Shown: in pieces, positions 45,547-52,412 of the stretch
Position numbering within the stretch: position 1 is the first letter of the stretch
Layout of the letters: every line of letters begins with the position of its first letter
DNA from: Nitrospirota bacterium
GTDB lineage: Bacteria; Nitrospirota; UBA9217
Length of the DNA stretch: 64,000 bases
Reading direction: 5' to 3'
Assembly: GCA_035516175.1 (NCBI GenBank)
Contig: DATJAO010000027.1
Location: 32,411 to 96,410, forward strand
The notes under the pieces: generated by a model
Databases searched by the model: none
What the model saw: the letters and a program-made list of their open reading frames with translations, nothing else
What the model was told of the DNA's origin: nothing
Position numbers and translations under genes: made by a program

Positions 45547-46500
45547 ATGCTCAAGGCGTTTTCTCATTATATTGTCCATTCAATGTTCGGCATGCAAACC
45601 GGCTCACGCCTTGCTGATTCCGCAGAATTCTTTATCTATGATACAATCAAGATATTTCTGCTTCTTTCTGTCATCATCTTCATTGTTTCCGTAATGAGAA
45701 GCTACTTCCCCCCTGAACGGACCAAGAGGATCCTATCCCATAAAAAAGAGTTTATTGGTAATATTCTCGCCGCTCTCCTGGGCATCGTTACGCCGTTCTG
45801 TTCCTGTTCTGCGGTACCACTTTTCATCGGCTTCGTGGAGGCGGGCGTCCCCCTTGGCGTTAATTTCTCCTTCCTGATCTCGTCCCCCATGGTGAACGAG
45901 GTAGCGGTGGTTCTCCTTTGGGGCCTCTTTGGCTGGAAGATCGCTGTCATTTACATGGCCACCGGTCTCTTTGTCGCGATCGTCGCCGGGCTGATCATAG
46001 GCAAGCTGAAGCTCGAAAGATGGGTCGAGGAGTACGTGTATACGATCCATTCCTTTGGTGCCGCCCAGGAGGTCGCGAGACAGAAGTTCAAGGAACGGTT
46101 CGTGTATGCCCGCCGGAATACAGATGATATTCTTAAGCGGGTATGGCTTTATGTGATCATTGCCATCGGTATCGGCGGATTCATCCACGGGTATGTGCCC
46201 AAGGACTTCCTCGTTCGCTATGCAGGTCCTCAGAACCCCTTCGGCGTGCCAGTAGCCGTAGCGTTGGGCGTCCCACTGTATTCGAATGCTGCCGGCTTGA
46301 TCCCGATCGTCTATGCTCTCATGGAAAAAGGGATGAGCATGGGCACCGTGCTGGCCTTCATGATGGCGGTCACTGCCCTGTCGCTCCCGGAGATGATCAT
46401 CCTGCGAAAGGTATTGAAAGTAAGGCTTCTCGCCATGTTCGTGGGTATCATGACTGTTACGATCATCGGCGTGGGATATCTGTTCAATGCAATTTTATAA
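45547..46500 (+). CDS. DUF318 / ArsP-type permease
   Basis: TPFCSCSAVP, FLISSPMVNE, GVPLYSNAAG, LSLPE. Confidence 0.9.
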   Translation: MLKAFSHYIVHSMFGMQTGSRLADSAEFFIYDTIKIFLLLSVIIFIVSVMRSYFPPERTKRILSHKKEFIGNILAALLGIVTPFCSCSAVPLFIGFVEAGVPLGVNFSFLISSPMVNEVAVVLLWGLFGWKIAVIYMATGLFVAIVAGLIIGKLKLERWVEEYVYTIHSFGAAQEVARQKFKERFVYARRNTDDILKRVWLYVIIAIGIGGFIHGYVPKDFLVRYAGPQNPFGVPVAVALGVPLYSNAAGLIPIVYALMEKGMSMGTVLAFMMAVTALSLPEMIILRKVLKVRLLAMFVGIMTVTIIGVGYLFNAIL

Positions 46501-46604
46501 AATGCCTTGAGCGCAAATGGTTCGAATTGGACGTATCAAACGAATGAAGGATTTTAATCATGACATTCGTGTAGTTTGCGTTCCAGAAACAAGGAGGTTT
46601 TGGA

Positions 46605-46850
46605 ATGGAGATCAAAGTTCTCGGACCAGGCTGCGCGAACTGCCTTAAGATGGAGGAACTGGCGAAGACCTCCGTGAAGGAACTTGGAATTAAAGCCACG
46701 GTCGCGAATATTTTAGATGTCGCTGGGATTGCACGACACGGTGTTTCATCGACCCGTCGGCCATGTCGTGAACGGAAAGATCAAACATTCAGGAAAGCTG
46801 TTTCCTAGGCTGGATAAGGTAAAGGAATTAATTAACGCAAGGCGTAGGGA
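46605..46850 (+). pseudogene. Small thioredoxin-like redox-active disulfide protein (MTH895-type), frameshifted
   Basis: MEIKVLGPGCANC...GVSST, then out of frame GHVVNGKIKHSGK.FP..DKVKELI; shift near 46752-46760. Confidence 0.75.
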
Positions 46851-46893
46851 ATTGCTGTTATCTTGGAATGCGCATTTAGGAGTGCAAAAACAA

Positions 46894-47274
46894 ATGGATG
46901 AATTGATAACCATATTCAAGGCGCTATCGGATGAGACGCGGCTTAGGATCATAAAGCTTCTCGAGCAGGGCGAACTATGCGTTTGCGACATCGTTATTGC
47001 TCTTGACATAATCCAACCCAAGATTTCGTTTCATCTGAATGTGTTGAAGGAGGCTGGCTTCATCAGGGACCGGAAACAGGGCAGGTGGATACACTACAGC
47101 CTGAATGATTCCGATATGTTCAGGAGGCTATTGATCCTTTCGGTATGCGAAAAGGCTCCTGACGCTGCGATGGCGAATGATAGGAAAAGATTGACCGTGT
47201 TCCTGAAAGGTAAGGACATGAGAGTCAAGGCGTCTTGCGGGACAAGCTTAATTGCTGCGGGGGATAAGAGATGA
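46894..47274 (+). CDS. arsR: ArsR/SmtB family repressor
   Basis: [35 protein letters not shown]; SD AGGAG upstream of ATG 46894. Confidence 0.92.
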
Positions 47275-48779
47275 TGAAAGTAATGTTCCTCTGCACCGGC
47301 AATTCCTGCCGGAGCCAGATGGCTGAAGGAATGGCGCGGGAGTTCGGTAAGGGCATGCTGGAGCCGTATAGCGCCGGCCTTATTGCGGCGGGTGTTCATC
47401 CTCGCGCGATTGCCGCGATGAAAGAGATCGGCATCGATATATCGGGCCAGAAATCCAAGGAGATCGATGAAGGTTTGCTGAGGACGATGGATGTGGTCAT
47501 TACCCTTTGCGGGAATGCCGAAGAGTCGTGTCCCTGGACCCCTCCGGAGATCAAGCGTCTTCACTGGCCTATCAATGACCCGGTAGGAACCGTAGGCTCA
47601 GAAGAAAAAATCATGAAGGAGTTCCGGCGGGCGAGGGATGAGATCGGGGCGAGAATAGTACAACTCGTATCCGAGCTCAAAACAAGGGGGGAAATAGCTG
47701 TGACGCAACAGGCTGTCAGCAGACTTTCATTTGTTGACTATTTCCTCACCTTATGGATCTTTGCCGCGATGGCTTTCGGTGTCGCTCTCGGCCATCTTAT
47801 CCCCAGGACGGAAGACTTCATCAACAGCTTGCGGTCCGGAACGACCAATATCCCCATCGCTGTTGGCCTCATACTCATGATGTATCCTCCTCTTGCCAAG
47901 GTCAAATATGAGGAACTTGGCGAAGTATTTAAAAACAAAAAAGTCCTAGGATTGTCACTGGTCCAGAACTGGTTCATTGGCCCCATTCTGATGTTCCTTT
48001 TGGCAATATTATTTCTTCGCGCCTATCCCGAATACATGGTAGGCCTCATCATGATTGGGCTTGCCCGGTGCATTGCGATGGTCATTGTCTGGAACGACCT
48101 TGCCTGCGGTGACCCTGAATACGCCGCCGGCCTGGTAGCATTCAATTCCATCTTCCAGGTCTTCTTTTATTCCGCCTATGCCTATGTGTTTATTACTGTG
48201 CTCCCTGCATGGTTCGGTCTCAAGGGGGCGGTTGTTGAGGTAACGATGGGACAGATCGCCAAAAGCGTTTTTATTTATCTGGGCATCCCGTTCATCGCTG
48301 GTCTGGCGACTCGTTTTGGCCTTATAAGGCTCAAGGGCCGCCCGTGGTACGATCAGACCTTTATCCCCCGGATAAGCCCCTTGACGCTCATCTCACTCCT
48401 TTTTACCATCGTCGTGATGTTTTCGCTCAAGGGGGATTATATCGTAAAGCTCCCCTTCGATGTTCTCATGATCGCGGTCCCTCTTCTGATCTATTTCGTC
48501 GTTATGTTCCTCGTTTCTTTCTACATGGCCCGGAAACTGGGGACCGACTACGCAAAAACCGCGACCCTGTCCTTTACGGCGGCAAGCAATAATTTCGAGC
48601 TCGCCATTGCGGTCGCCGTCGCCGTCTTCGGGATCAATTCAGGAGTCGCCTTCGCGGCAGTCATCGGTCCGCTGGTGGAGGTACCTGTCCTGATTGGTCT
48701 CGTTAACGTAGCGCGTTTTTTCCAGAGGAAATATTTCAAAGTGGAGTACTGCAACATTCGGTCAACAGAATTGCCATAA
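47271..48779 (+). CDS. acr3: Fused ArsC (LMW-PTP-type arsenate reductase) - Acr3 arsenite efflux protein
   Basis: N-terminal [15 protein letters not shown] and HWPINDP; C-terminal Acr3 ([44 protein letters not shown]) in one frame. Confidence 0.9.
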
Positions 48780-48814: not shown

Positions 48815-49531
48815 ATGAGATTCGCCGTATTCGGAGACATACACGGAAATTTGGAAGCTCTGAGGGCGGCCTACGAGGCAGCCAGCCAGGAAGGCGTCGA
48901 GAAGATTTACCACCTCGGCGACCTGGGAGGCTACGCTCCCTTCGTCAACGAAGTGGTTGATTTTCTGGTAGAGCGCGGCATCGAGGGTGTGCAGGGCAAT
49001 TACGACGAGACGGTTGCGAATGACCGGGAGCATTGCGGCTGCAAGGCCGAGGACCCGGTCCAGGAGGAGATGGCAAACCGGGCCTTTACCTGGACGAAAC
49101 AGCATGTTTCCCAAAAGGCCAGAGATTATATGCGGAGCCTTCCTTTCAGCATTGCATTCACCGCCGAGGGCAAGAAGGTCCTGCTCTTCCATGCAACGCC
49201 TAAGAAGAACAACCTCTACTGGTACGAAGACCGGCCAGAGAAGTTCTTCCGGGAGATGGCGGATAAGGTAGACGCCGACGTCCTGATCTATGGACATGTT
49301 CACAAGCAGTATCGGAAGGATTTCAGCGGCAAAGTCTTCATCAACGCCGGAAGTGTGGGCAAACCGAAAGACGGGGACCCGAGGTCATGCGTCACCGTGG
49401 TCGAGATAACGGAGAACGCCGTGAGCGTCAAGTTCCTGCGGGTTCCCTATGATGTCCAAAAGACTGCGGAGGCCATCGTTTCAAGCGGTTTGCCCTCTTA
49501 TTTTGCAGAAAAGCTTAAAGGGGGCAAATAA
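48815..49531 (+). CDS. Calcineurin-like metallophosphoesterase
   Basis: GDIHGN, LGDL, GNYD, GHVH, NAGSVGKP. Confidence 0.9.
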   Translation: MRFAVFGDIHGNLEALRAAYEAASQEGVEKIYHLGDLGGYAPFVNEVVDFLVERGIEGVQGNYDETVANDREHCGCKAEDPVQEEMANRAFTWTKQHVSQKARDYMRSLPFSIAFTAEGKKVLLFHATPKKNNLYWYEDRPEKFFREMADKVDADVLIYGHVHKQYRKDFSGKVFINAGSVGKPKDGDPRSCVTVVEITENAVSVKFLRVPYDVQKTAEAIVSSGLPSYFAEKLKGGK

Positions 49532-49832
49532 GGAGCAGGGGAGTTTTTTTATTAATAACATGTTCAATACTATCCTAAATTAGAGGCAGGGGGCTGGCGT
49601 TTCTTGCGGTATTCACGTTCGTTGTTGTGCAGGGCAAAAGCTTCAATTTATTTAAAGAAAATCAGCGGGATAGTATATGTTACAGTTGGTATTTATTTAA
49701 GCATAACAATATTATGAAATGCGATTGGATTAAAAAAACAGTTGCGAAGATTTGAATATGCTGGTAAAATAAAAAATTCGTATATAATTTAACTAATATC
49801 GGACAGGCTCAGAATTACAGCAAGGAGGATGT

Positions 49833-50138
49833 ATGGTAAGTTTGACAGAGAGTGCGGTGAGGAAGTTCAAGGATGTTGTCGAAAAACAGGGTACGGTAGG
49901 TGACGGGGTAAGGATATTTACCGTTCCCGGAGGCTGAAGCCCAACCTTGGCTATGGACATAGCCAAAGCAGCTCAATTGGGTGACACTACTCTTGAGTTA
50001 GACGGTTTGAAGGTTTATTTGGAAGAGCGCGCCAAGAGCATGCTCATGAACACGAACATCGATTTTCATGAGGGCCAGGGTTTCGTCCTGTCCGGCATGC
50101 AGCCGAGTTCTTGCGGTTCTTCGTGCAGCAGCTGTTAA
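49833..50138 (+). CDS. HesB/IscA-like selenoprotein (Sec at codon 35)
   Basis: SD AAGGAGG; MVSLTESAVRKFKDVVEKQG..GVRIFTVPGG-TGA-SPTLAMD...LDGLKVYLEE...; in-frame TGA at 49935 sits where A-type carriers have GGC; hairpin follows. Confidence 0.82.
49947..49966 (+). promoter_or_regulatory. Candidate bacterial SECIS element
   Basis: Perfect 8-bp stem TTGGCTAT/ATAGCCAA with G-containing loop GGAC starting 18 nt after the UGA. Confidence 0.7.
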
Positions 50139-50165: not shown

Positions 50166-50198
50166 CGCCGTCTTCAATTTGAAGACGGCGTTTTTTTT
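50166..50198 (+). terminator. Rho-independent terminator
   Basis: CGCCGTCTTCA-ATT-TGAAGACGGCG followed by T8. Confidence 0.88.
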
Positions 50199-50321: not shown

Positions 50322-50456
50322 ATGCCTCTGCTCGAAGTCAAAGATATTATTTACGGAGCGGGTTCCGACGGTAAAACGCCCATTCTCTCCGGGCTTTCAC
50401 TCGCCATCGAGACTGGAGAAGTCCATGCTCTTCTCGGCACAAGCGGGAATTTGTAA
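50322..50456 (+). pseudogene. Truncated N-terminus of a second SufC-like ABC ATPase (44 aa)
   Basis: MPLLEVKDIIY..GKTPILSGLSLAIETGEVHALLGTSG* breaks off inside Walker A, 1 nt before the intact sufC start. Confidence 0.7.
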
Positions 50457-50457
50457 T

Positions 50458-51198
50458 ATGATTGACATCAGAAAGTTATCAGTCAGCGTTGATGGGAAAA
50501 AAATACTCAATGATGTGAATCTTAGCATTGGGCAGGGAGAAACCGTCGTCTTGTTCGGTCCGAACGGTTCCGGAAAGACCTCTCTTCTGAAGACGATCAT
50601 GGGAATCCCCCAGTACAGGGTGGAATCAGGAAACATAATCTACAGGGATGAGGAGATTACGAAACGCAGCATCGACGAGCGCGCACGGCTTGGTATCGGC
50701 ATGGTCTTTCAGAATCCTCCGGCGGTGCGAGGGGTGAGGCTTAAAGACATACTGCGCATCTGCATGGAGAAGGCCGGTTCTTATAAGGAGGAAATGGTCA
50801 ATGCGGACGCCGACAAATTGAACTTCACCGAGTTTTTGGACAGGGACATCAATCTGGGATTTTCAGGAGGAGAGATCAAGCGTTCCGAACTCCTTCAACT
50901 TCTAGCCCAGAATCCGGGGTTCGTAATGTTCGACGAACCTGATTCGGGCGTGGACTTGGTCAACATCAACCTGGTGGGAAGGGTAATAAATGAGTTGCTC
51001 GAGAAAGACAAAAGGGAAGACAAGAGAACAAAGGGGGGGCTGATCATAACGCATGCTGGTTACATCCTGGACTATGTCAATGCCGACAGAGCATACGTTA
51101 TGCTGAACGGTTCGGTAAGTTGCTCCGGAAACCCGAGGGACATTCTGGAGGACATAAGATCAAAAGGGTATGAGGAGTGCGTGAGATGTCGAAGGTAA
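50458..51198 (+). CDS. sufC: Fe-S assembly ABC ATPase SufC/SmsC
   Basis: GPNGSGKTS, FSGGEIKR, FDEPDSGVD, IITH. Confidence 0.9.
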   Translation: MIDIRKLSVSVDGKKILNDVNLSIGQGETVVLFGPNGSGKTSLLKTIMGIPQYRVESGNIIYRDEEITKRSIDERARLGIGMVFQNPPAVRGVRLKDILRICMEKAGSYKEEMVNADADKLNFTEFLDRDINLGFSGGEIKRSELLQLLAQNPGFVMFDEPDSGVDLVNINLVGRVINELLEKDKREDKRTKGGLIITHAGYILDYVNADRAYVMLNGSVSCSGNPRDILEDIRSKGYEECVRCRR

Positions 51199-52412
51199 AT
51201 CTTAAGGAAAAGGCGAAACATTCAGAAAAGAAACCAGGCGCCATCGGACCGGACATCGATCTTGCCGCATATTCCGTCCAGGCGGAAAAGCATGATGAGA
51301 TTCAACGATTAACAGGACTGACCGATGAAGTAAAAGAGCGGGCGGTGAGCGTAGGTATTGACGCCGATGACGCGTGCCGGGCAGGGTCGTTTTTTCAAAT
51401 GGACCATTCGGTCATACTCTCTTCAGCCTATCAAAGCGGCCTCGAGGTGATGAGCACTACGGAGGCGCTCAAGAAATACGAGTGGCTCAAGGACTACTGG
51501 TGGAAGGCCGTTGAGGTGGACGCGGACAAGTATACTGCCCAAGCCGAGCTGAATCAGCACCATGGCTACTTTTTGAGAGCGCTGCCAGGGGCAAAGGCGG
51601 AATTCCCCCTGCAGGCCTGTCTCTACATGACCCGGGAAGGGCTGGCGCAGAATGTGCACAACGTTATCATTGCGGAGGAGGGCTCAGAGCTCCATATTAT
51701 CACCGGCTGCACCACGGCGCAGCATGTAAAGTCCGGGCTCCATATTGGTGTCTCCGAGTTTTATATAAAGAAGAACGCAAAGGTCACCTTTACTATGATC
51801 CATAACTGGGCCGAGGACGTTGCGGTCCGGCCGAGGACCGGCACAATCGTGGAGGAAAACGGCGTCTTCATGAGCAACTATATCTGCATGAGGCCGGTAA
51901 GGACCCTCCAGATGTACCCCGCTGCATACTGTATCGGCGAGAATGCCACGGTAAGGTACAATACCATATTATTTGCGCCCGAGGGATCTAATATGGATGT
52001 AGGCTCCAAGGTCTTCCTGAGGGCCAGGGGAAGCAGGGCAGAGGTCATAGCAAGAGCCATAACGAAGGGAGGCGCTATCGTCACGAGGGGGAACCTGATC
52101 GGCGAGGTCCCCGGAATAAAGGCGCACCTGGAATGTCGGGGGCTCATCCTCTCCGAACGTGGATCGATCCTCGCGATTCCCGAGTTGGACGGCAGGGTGA
52201 ATGGCGTCGATATGTCCCATGAGGCAGCTGTCGGAAAGATCGCGGAGGAAGAGATACAGTATCTCATGGCGCGGGGACTGAGCGGCGACGAGGCAACGGC
52301 CGCCATCGTCAGGGGTTTCCTGGACATTGAGATAAAGGGACTCCCGGAACGTCTCAAGGGGGAGATAAAAAAGGCCATCAGATTGGGGGAAAAAGAGGAA
52401 CGCCTTTTCTGA
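51186..52412 (+). CDS. sufB: Fe-S scaffold SufB/SufBD (SmsB-type)
   Basis: PLQACL, QNVHN.IIAEEGS, HIGVSEFY, AHLECRGL, SHEAAVGKI, YLMARGL. Confidence 0.9.
   Translation: MSKVNLKEKAKHSEKKPGAIGPDIDLAAYSVQAEKHDEIQRLTGLTDEVKERAVSVGIDADDACRAGSFFQMDHSVILSSAYQSGLEVMSTTEALKKYEWLKDYWWKAVEVDADKYTAQAELNQHHGYFLRALPGAKAEFPLQACLYMTREGLAQNVHNVIIAEEGSELHIITGCTTAQHVKSGLHIGVSEFYIKKNAKVTFTMIHNWAEDVAVRPRTGTIVEENGVFMSNYICMRPVRTLQMYPAAYCIGENATVRYNTILFAPEGSNMDVGSKVFLRARGSRAEVIARAITKGGAIVTRGNLIGEVPGIKAHLECRGLILSERGSILAIPELDGRVNGVDMSHEAAVGKIAEEEIQYLMARGLSGDEATAAIVRGFLDIEIKGLPERLKGEIKKAIRLGEKEERLF

Follow-up and report, generated by a model that had tools for sequence, protein, structure and literature searches.

We analyzed a window of 64,000 nucleotides from a Nitrospirota bacterium (GenBank assembly GCA_035516175.1, contig DATJAO010000027.1, positions 32,411 to 96,410; all coordinates below are those of the window), in which a UGA-interrupted gene of the HesB/IscA type lies on the forward strand. 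The gene consists of a single reading frame of 101 codons plus TAA at 49833-50138, broken only by the TGA at 49935-49937, which is codon 35 and stands in the context PGG-U-SPT (U, selenocysteine [Sec]). A table-11 open reading frame (ORF) list contains only two stumps, 49833-49937 and 49947-50138, so the gene as a whole is missing from the ORF track, as the first-pass annotation had pointed out. The other signals on which that annotation drew, a strong Shine-Dalgarno sequence with an ATG at 49833 and a cysteine-rich tail, are also present in the sequence and its translation. The gene and its signals are as follows:

49742-49770, + strand: promoter-like site found by a consensus scan (TTGCGA, 17-nucleotide [nt] spacer, TAAAAT, with TG before the -10 element), of putative function
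49822-49828, + strand: Shine-Dalgarno sequence AAGGAGG, 4 nt before the ATG at 49833, read from the window
49833-50138, + strand: complete coding sequence, 101 codons plus TAA, of a predicted HesB/IscA-fold selenoprotein (translation, PF01521, AlphaFold2/Foldseek, and the ratio of nonsynonymous to synonymous substitution rates [dN/dS])
49935-49937, + strand: UGA codon 35, predicted selenocysteine, aligned with the GGC-S cysteine of Aquifex IscA (1nwb)
49947-49966, + strand: putative selenocysteine insertion sequence (SECIS), a stem-loop with an 8-bp stem, the loop GGAC at 49955-49958, and a conserved 7-bp core (49948-49954/49959-49965)
50112-50135, + strand: cysteine cluster C94-G-S-S-C98-S-S-C101 at the C terminus (tail SSCGSSCSSC)
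50166-50198, + strand: intrinsic terminator, an 11-bp stem (50166-50190) and a T run, which separates the gene from the suf genes downstream

Comparison with relatives indicates that 49833-50138 is very probably a genuine selenoprotein gene, and we infer that Sec is inserted at UGA-35. Among 40 related genomes there were 22 close matches (61 to 92% identity), located in 21 genomes of the same family and all with an internal TGA, exactly one per match save for one match with two; the remaining matches were only cysteine paralogs with about 30% identity. TGA is retained at this codon in 20/20 orthologs from relatives. A species-level scan, covering a single genome for each species, yielded 66 loci, nearly all in Nitrospirota metagenome-assembled genomes (MAGs) from soil and groundwater, with identities down to 38% (Thermodesulfovibrionales), and every one of the 66 has TGA at this position. 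Of the two search patterns used in that scan, G[VI]RIFx[VI]PGG lies upstream of the UGA codon and is independent of it, and it recovered no close cysteine form from the species-level genomes; likewise, the collections searched held no close ortholog in which Cys occupies the Sec position. The protein database contains about 200 relatives, nearly all of them stumps of 60 to 63 residues called "IscA" or "hypothetical protein [Nitrospirota bacterium]," and the sole full-length relative has W at the UGA site, i.e., its TGA was translated under another code.

Selection acts on both halves of the frame. Among the 20 orthologs, dN/dS was 0.11 upstream of the UGA (34 codons) and 0.16 downstream, at a synonymous rate (dS) near 1.5, and therefore both sides of the UGA encode protein. 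As the ordinary stop codon of the gene is TGA in 7 of these orthologs, there has been no genome-wide reassignment of UGA. Three contigs with the Nitrospirota-type Sec gene are filed under other taxa, namely, Betaproteobacteria MAG281 (L078), Syntrophobacter sp. SbD1 (L102), and Candidatus Firestonebacteria (L131). The L102 protein is identical to that of a Nitrospirota MAG (L103), and the three contigs are probably mis-binned.

The start signals recur as well. A site of the AGGAGG type precedes the first ATG in nearly all of 67 loci compared, and the extended -10 element TGGTAATAT is found at the equivalent place in the congeners; only these two elements, the Shine-Dalgarno sequence and a -10-like sequence, recur in an upstream motif comparison of the 67 loci. 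An inverted repeat, CTGAG-N10-CTCAG, lies in the 5' untranslated region (UTR) of two congeners (G001 and G002), about 20 nt before the Shine-Dalgarno sequence. Hairpins similar to this one occur in a minority of the loci (about 15/67), and the 5' arm of the repeat in the window (49790-49812) is CTAAT, with two substitutions relative to the congeners.

The hairpin TTGGCTAT-GGAC-ATAGCCAA at 49947-49966 begins 9 nt after the UGA, which places its loop 17 nt after that codon. The SECIS element of Escherichia coli fdhF is a coding-region stem-loop directly after the UGA, with the apical tetraloop GGUC about 17 to 18 nt after it, and judged by this element the loop position and leading G residues of the hairpin match those of bacterial SECIS elements. 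The core of the stem (TGGCTAT/ATAGCCA, 7 bp) forms standard pairs in all 62 distinct sequences, six of which have a compensatory change of one pair from G-C to A-U on both sides, a change that also alters two amino acids (LAMDIAK to LTMDIVK). Three further pairs vary only to G-U wobbles, the lower stem is poorly conserved, and the loop is GGAC throughout except for a single GGAU. The degenerate codons of the stem (GCT, GAC, ATA, and GCC) show no synonymous change in 20 orthologs, compared with a codon entropy of 1.4 to 1.9 bits at other invariant four-fold sites, and dS is 0.35 within the hairpin versus about 1.5 in its flanks. The perfect 8-bp hairpin with a G-containing loop described by the first-pass annotation thus stands, with a core paired in 62/62 sequences and one compensatory pair.

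The read-through product belongs to the fold of the A-type carriers. It scores 31.5 bits against PF01521 (Pfam gathering threshold, 26.3 bits), and when it is aligned with two solved IscA-type proteins, 1nwb (Aquifex IscA) and 2apn, position 35 falls on their GGC-S cysteine, in agreement with the earlier proposal that the UGA occupies the cysteine site of GGCSG. An AlphaFold2 model built with 66 sequences has a mean predicted local distance difference test (pLDDT) score of 79.5, with only the cysteine-rich tail disordered. In the crystal structures of A-type carriers the C-terminal tail is flexible, which agrees with the disorder in the model. Foldseek matched the model to E. coli IscA (1r94 and 1s98; template modeling [TM] scores of 0.71 to 0.72) and also to SufA (2d2a) and cluster-bound IscA (1x0g), these four matches having E values of 3e-6 to 1e-4 and TM scores of 0.62 to 0.72. 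C94, C98, and C101 are invariant in 19 orthologs.

The curated family models respond less well to this protein. TIGR01911 (HesB_rel_seleno) gave no match for it (P0001) at E values up to 10, and a relative reached 17.7 bits against a cut-off of 66.35; NF038090 (IscA_HesB_Se) gave 34.0 and 41.6 bits against a cut-off of 85, and TIGR00049 (iron-sulfur cluster assembly accessory protein) gave 45.1 bits against 58.8. None of 41 Nitrospirota genomes exceeds the cut-off of TIGR01911 or NF038090, which is why automatic annotation misses the gene, and in Nitrospirota the ordinary cysteine paralogs outscore the Sec genes with NF038090. The first-pass annotation had placed the protein in the established HesB-like selenoprotein family; homology to PF01521 and Sec at the first conserved cysteine bear this out, but the scores lie below both selenoprotein cut-offs, and because of this we consider the protein part of a separate branch of HesB-like selenoproteins. 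The only other PF01521 gene of the assembly (G000:C55:12539-12913) combines a vicinal-cysteine motif (GGGGCCGPSYE) with a long Gly/Cys tail, and no canonical GGCSG A-type carrier was found in the assembly. This paralog is located not in an ars operon but inside a tetrapyrrole cluster, after hemA-, hemC-, and cobA/hemD-like genes and before a hemB-like gene, these names being read off the translations with no family search run.

Several results weigh against a selenoprotein. The assembly (2.49 Mb, 73 contigs, 86% complete) contains no selA, no selB (the matches are only of EF-Tu, IF2, or EF-G type), no selD, and no tRNA-Sec detectable by ARAGORN or Rfam among its 34 tRNA genes, so that two separate loci would have to be missing from an 86%-complete MAG. 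The hairpin, folded as a single sequence, was not significant compared with shuffled sequence (z = -0.94), and for this reason the case for it rests on comparison with relatives; an Rfam scan of the locus returned neither a SECIS nor any other family. Two candidates for the machinery were rejected: the best selD-like match reads as ThiL, and the best selB-like match, which adjoins an EF-G gene and is cut at the contig end, is EF-Tu.

The first-pass annotation had expected Sec machinery elsewhere in the genome, and what we found is its absence from the assembly and its presence in the congeners. selA scores above the cut-off in 20/24 genomes of the same family, congener G002 included, and most of these genomes, among them congeners G002 and G003, have a selD with its own internal UGA. 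Other incomplete congeners also lack single components (selA in G003, selD in G001), and the congener genomes measure 3.2 to 3.6 Mb. In G002, selA, selB, and tRNA-Sec are on one contig, in a 20-kb region that includes unrelated genes such as one of 713 residues; since none of its nine ORFs, unrelated ones included, has an ortholog in the assembly, the region is missing from it as a whole. From the congeners and the incompleteness of the assembly we infer that the Sec machinery sits in the unassembled part of the genome. The synteny of the selD region of G002 and G003 with the assembly breaks before selD, and around the G002 tRNA-Sec the assembly matches only through a small lipoprotein gene, which is a paralog; both are uninformative on loss versus an assembly gap. 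In the 10-contig assembly of G001, selA is in four pieces with internal stops (G001:C10:284212-285600), most likely an effect of indel errors in long reads and not of decay.

The assembly also has a second intact UGA gene, PrdB-like (G000:C62:24251-24916, - strand; 181.8 bits), whose single internal TGA stands in the context TPG-U-GICNQ. An 8-bp hairpin follows 11 nt after this UGA, with the loop GUG, placed much as in the HesB-like gene. It came from a targeted search for the PrdB family, used in place of a genome-wide scan for UGA-interrupted genes (by codon usage, redox motifs, and downstream hairpins) whose first version had missed the target gene and whose 391 to 502 candidates were set aside as mostly adjacent genes or noise.

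Other ways of reading the UGA have to be set against these data. If the Sec machinery had been lost in this organism, the gene would be a recently inactivated relic ending at the UGA. All four components are indeed missing from the assembly, and the 5'-UTR repeat of the congeners has its two substitutions here, but the gene, the SECIS, and the start signals are intact, the protein is 92 to 93% identical to those of the congeners, and the PrdB-like gene is intact too. The missing genes can also be accounted for by the small size of the assembly, the gaps seen in G003 and G001, and the loss from view of the whole 20-kb region, so we regard a relic as improbable. The first-pass annotation had itself allowed for a nonsense pseudogene, should sel genes be lacking and the homologs have neither Cys nor Sec at this site; the homologs carry Sec there, and the wider family carries Cys. 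We give even less credence to the idea that the UGA terminates translation and that the true product is a C-terminal protein of 61 to 63 residues from an internal TTG or ATG (49947 or 49953). Gene callers have annotated the roughly 200 database relatives in this way, but the 34 upstream codons are under strong purifying selection behind a conserved Shine-Dalgarno sequence and ATG, the frame across the UGA is preserved in 66 species, the fold requires both halves, and no Shine-Dalgarno-like sequence was seen before the internal start. Decoding of the UGA as a standard amino acid (Trp, Gly, or Cys), through code reassignment or near-cognate read-through, seems just as remote. One pipeline did put W at the site in a relative; against this, TGA serves as the normal terminator in 7/20 orthologs of the same gene, all other PF01521 proteins have a metal-ligand cysteine at this position, the hairpin is conserved at SECIS distance, and the genomes of the clade carry selA and selD.

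With a selenoprotein thus the preferred reading, the UGA at codon 35 would not be read as a stop, and the stem-loop 9 nt downstream would act as a bacterial SECIS that recruits the elongation factor SelB with Sec-tRNA(Sec), leading to the insertion of selenocysteine. The predicted product is a cytoplasmic protein of 101 residues with the fold of an A-type iron-sulfur (Fe-S) carrier (IscA/SufA/HesB), in which Sec35 would replace the first ligand cysteine and, by analogy with IscA dimers, could form a soft selenolate/thiolate site together with C94, C98, and C101 of the flexible tail. The neighborhood of the gene contains the following features:

45547-46500, + strand: ArsP permease (Pfam, tblastn)
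from 46605, + strand: thioredoxin-like gene (PF13192; Pfam)
46900-47274, + strand: ArsR (Pfam, tblastn)
47271-48779, + strand: ArsC-Acr3 fusion (Pfam, tblastn)
48815-49531, + strand: metallophosphoesterase (PF12850, 94.7 bits), between the ars cluster and the selenoprotein gene
50322-50456, + strand: 44-codon stump of a type-1 sufC, 88% identical to the N terminus of the intact gene found after the ortholog in G001 and G002
50458-52412, + strand: SufC-like ABC ATPase (50458-51198) and SufB/D-like protein (51177-52412), from the ORF list

The ars cluster (45547-48779, + strand) holds the only arsC, acr3, arsR, and arsP copies of the assembly. These genes directly upstream, overlooked in the first-pass annotation, are the more persistent link both across the family and in the nearest cysteine relatives. 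An ArsC of the low-molecular-weight protein tyrosine phosphatase (LMW-PTP) type lies within 3 kb on the same strand in 43/67 loci (36 upstream and 7 downstream), and any ars gene within 3 kb, mostly upstream, in 46/67; the link is maintained across at least seven gene orders. In Thermodesulfovibrionales, arsR, the Sec gene, a thioredoxin/membrane gene, and arsC abut or overlap as an operon, and a thioredoxin-plus-membrane protein is found within 3 kb downstream in 16/67 loci. This protein of about 525 residues, located between the Sec gene and arsC (L130:3273-4850), has a sub-threshold thioredoxin-like/redoxin match around CPHC and a multi-pass membrane part with the motif GLDSFNPCAFFVLFSLLGLL and no Pfam match.

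Within the ars cluster of the window, ArsC (LMW-PTP type) and Acr3 are fused in one ORF of 502 residues, a fusion also seen in the congeners. A frameshift near 46750 apparently interrupts the thioredoxin-like gene (46605-46910): one frame encodes the first 50 residues, and the sequence expected at the C terminus (VVNGKIKHSGKL...DKVKELI) follows in the next frame, with no stop before the ArsR frame, which starts at about 46900. An assembly indel, a pseudogene, or a fusion could each explain this. The metallophosphoesterase is directly upstream only in G002 among the close relatives that were compared; a more distant locus (L117) has one with 70% identity about 3 kb upstream.

On the other side of the gene, the adjacency to SufCB genes noted in the first-pass annotation holds for the SufC- and SufB/D-like genes at 50458-52412, but the terminator and the 44-codon sufC stump stand in between, and this is one of two recurring contexts. 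In G003 and G004 the ortholog is followed by a type-2 pair, with which the complete pair of the window shares 84 to 89% identity. The DNA of the window is homologous to G001 as far as 50446 and to the G004 cassette from 50455, which puts the junction at about 50447-50454, and the same layout of a sufC stump and a complete suf pair is found in G003 with 73% identity. Recombination thus seems to have exchanged one suf cassette for another.

The search of a clade profile against 1.84 billion representative proteins returned, as the best full-length relatives, vicinal-cysteine (CC) proteins of the form GG-CC-(G)PSLAMD... that end in SSCC and score 97 to 121 bits, while the canonical GGCSGF carriers remain below about 92 bits, save two tandem-domain proteins (101 to 103 bits). 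The CC relatives also fall under the cut-offs of the curated models, and no fossil SECIS was found in the nearest of them. All of the five nearest CC proteins that we looked up are encoded directly downstream of arsD; in four cases arsA follows (one of these also has arsC) and in the fifth a methyltransferase gene. In a maximum-likelihood tree, the 21 Sec and 15 CC proteins together form one clade (support, 99/94), with the canonical carriers in a separate group (99/96) and the CC-type paralog of the assembly also outside, nearer the canonical carriers; the alignment is short, with few columns, and the tree does not settle the branching order inside the Sec/CC clade. Taken from these sequences, an all-Sec clade, almost exclusively of Nitrospirota, appears to nest among vicinal-cysteine HesB-like proteins flanked by arsD and arsA.

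From this gene context, we consider the chances about even that the protein functions in the ars regulon, either in the binding and hand-over of As(III) or in the protection or repair of Fe-S proteins under arsenic stress. More tentatively, and with less than even confidence, the analysis points to the Sec clade and its CC relatives as a distinct arsenic-operon class built on the A-type-carrier fold, not Fe-S assembly factors. In this reading, As(III) that ArsC produces or that comes in from outside would be bound at the selenolate/thiolate (or tri-thiolate) site and handed on to the efflux systems (Acr3, ArsA), and Sec would be fixed for its higher affinity or faster exchange with the metalloid. 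Some observations speak against an arsenic function. A SufC-like gene lies within 3 kb on the same strand in 35/67 loci, always downstream, which fits an Fe-S role. A promoter-like site and a terminator serve this gene alone in the window, so that any joint regulation with the ars genes is hypothetical, and a comparison of the ars promoter regions with the region upstream of the Sec gene gave only chance-level repeats where a shared operator was sought. Moreover, conserved synteny among related genomes inflates the number of independent observations of the ars link.

Alternatively, the protein might be a genuine selenoprotein but simply an ordinary A-type Fe-S or iron carrier of the adjacent minimal SufCB-type system, with the ars genes as inherited neighbors. 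The fold and ligand layout are those of IscA/SufA, the SufC-like gene follows in the 35 loci mentioned, and the assembly has no canonical GGCSG carrier, its other PF01521 gene being the CC type in the heme-synthesis cluster. We nevertheless rate this possibility below a function in the ars regulon, since a terminator and a sufC stump separate the Sec gene from the suf genes in the window, two different suf cassettes occupy that position across the relatives, and divergent members have none at all. The ars link, on the other hand, outlives rearrangement and reaches the nearest cysteine relatives, all after arsD and 4/5 also before arsA.

The kind of protein described here is already known; the unannotated all-Sec branch of Nitrospirota and its placement among the ars-operon CC proteins are new. 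In at least 66 genomes at the species level and in about 200 metagenome protein clusters, the gene appears only as a stump of 60 residues, labeled "hypothetical protein" or "IscA," and as the two selenoprotein-aware HesB models of NCBI miss it, a dedicated model would mend a systematic error in soil and groundwater Nitrospirota. The lack of any close Cys ortholog, with less similar vicinal Cys-Cys proteins as the nearest Cys forms, suggests that Sec is difficult to replace here. The case also shows that absent sel genes in a MAG are weak evidence against a selenoprotein call. The company of arsC, acr3, arsR, arsD, and arsA offers a concrete arsenic hypothesis for HesB-like selenoproteins, and the idea of an arsenic-operon class, if true, would give a function to a branch of these proteins, whose role has been without assignment since 2004.

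From the earliest selenoproteome surveys onward, the HesB-like selenoproteins have counted as an established family. Eleven members were counted in one of the published compilations (PMC1794560), TIGR01911 is listed with the motif UxGP (PMC13188914), and the member from Methanococcus maripaludis, MMJJ_08070, was confirmed by 75Se labeling, its function being described as one that "is not clear" (PMC11097638). Like those of the TIGR01911 type, the protein at 49833-50138 is a small PF01521 protein of anaerobes with a putative Sec at the first conserved cysteine, a cysteine-rich C terminus, and a function that is not established. It differs in its motif, GG-U-S-P-S (U-S-P-T/S) and not UxGP, and in that no close cysteine ortholog was found. 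The alignment to NF038090, whose name marks a selenoprotein-containing IscA/HesB subfamily, is full length (1-100 of 101 positions) at equal size.

The predicted SECIS resembles that of E. coli fdhF in its position and in a tetraloop that begins with GG (GGAC here), whereas it lacks an evident bulged U, has a shorter stem, and shows poor conservation of the lower stem. With IscA, SufA, and ErpA the protein shares the fold and the three-ligand layout, in which one ligand follows the GG turn and the others sit in the C-terminal tail, but here Sec would stand in place of Cys35, GGUSPS in place of GGCSGF, the three tail cysteines are otherwise spaced, and the clade is separate. The ars-operon CC proteins are alike in length, in the PSLAMD-type segment, in tree clade, and in ars linkage; they have Cys-Cys where Sec-Ser is predicted here and a CC(G/S) tail in place of C-x3-C-x1-2-C, the SECIS hairpin is found only here, and their genes adjoin arsD and arsA, both of which are missing from the window. 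A HesB-like gene in an ars operon has also been reported as orf7 of ars1 in Bacillus sp. CDB3, with no function given (PMC4562236), and the likeness to the present gene is drawn from that published description.

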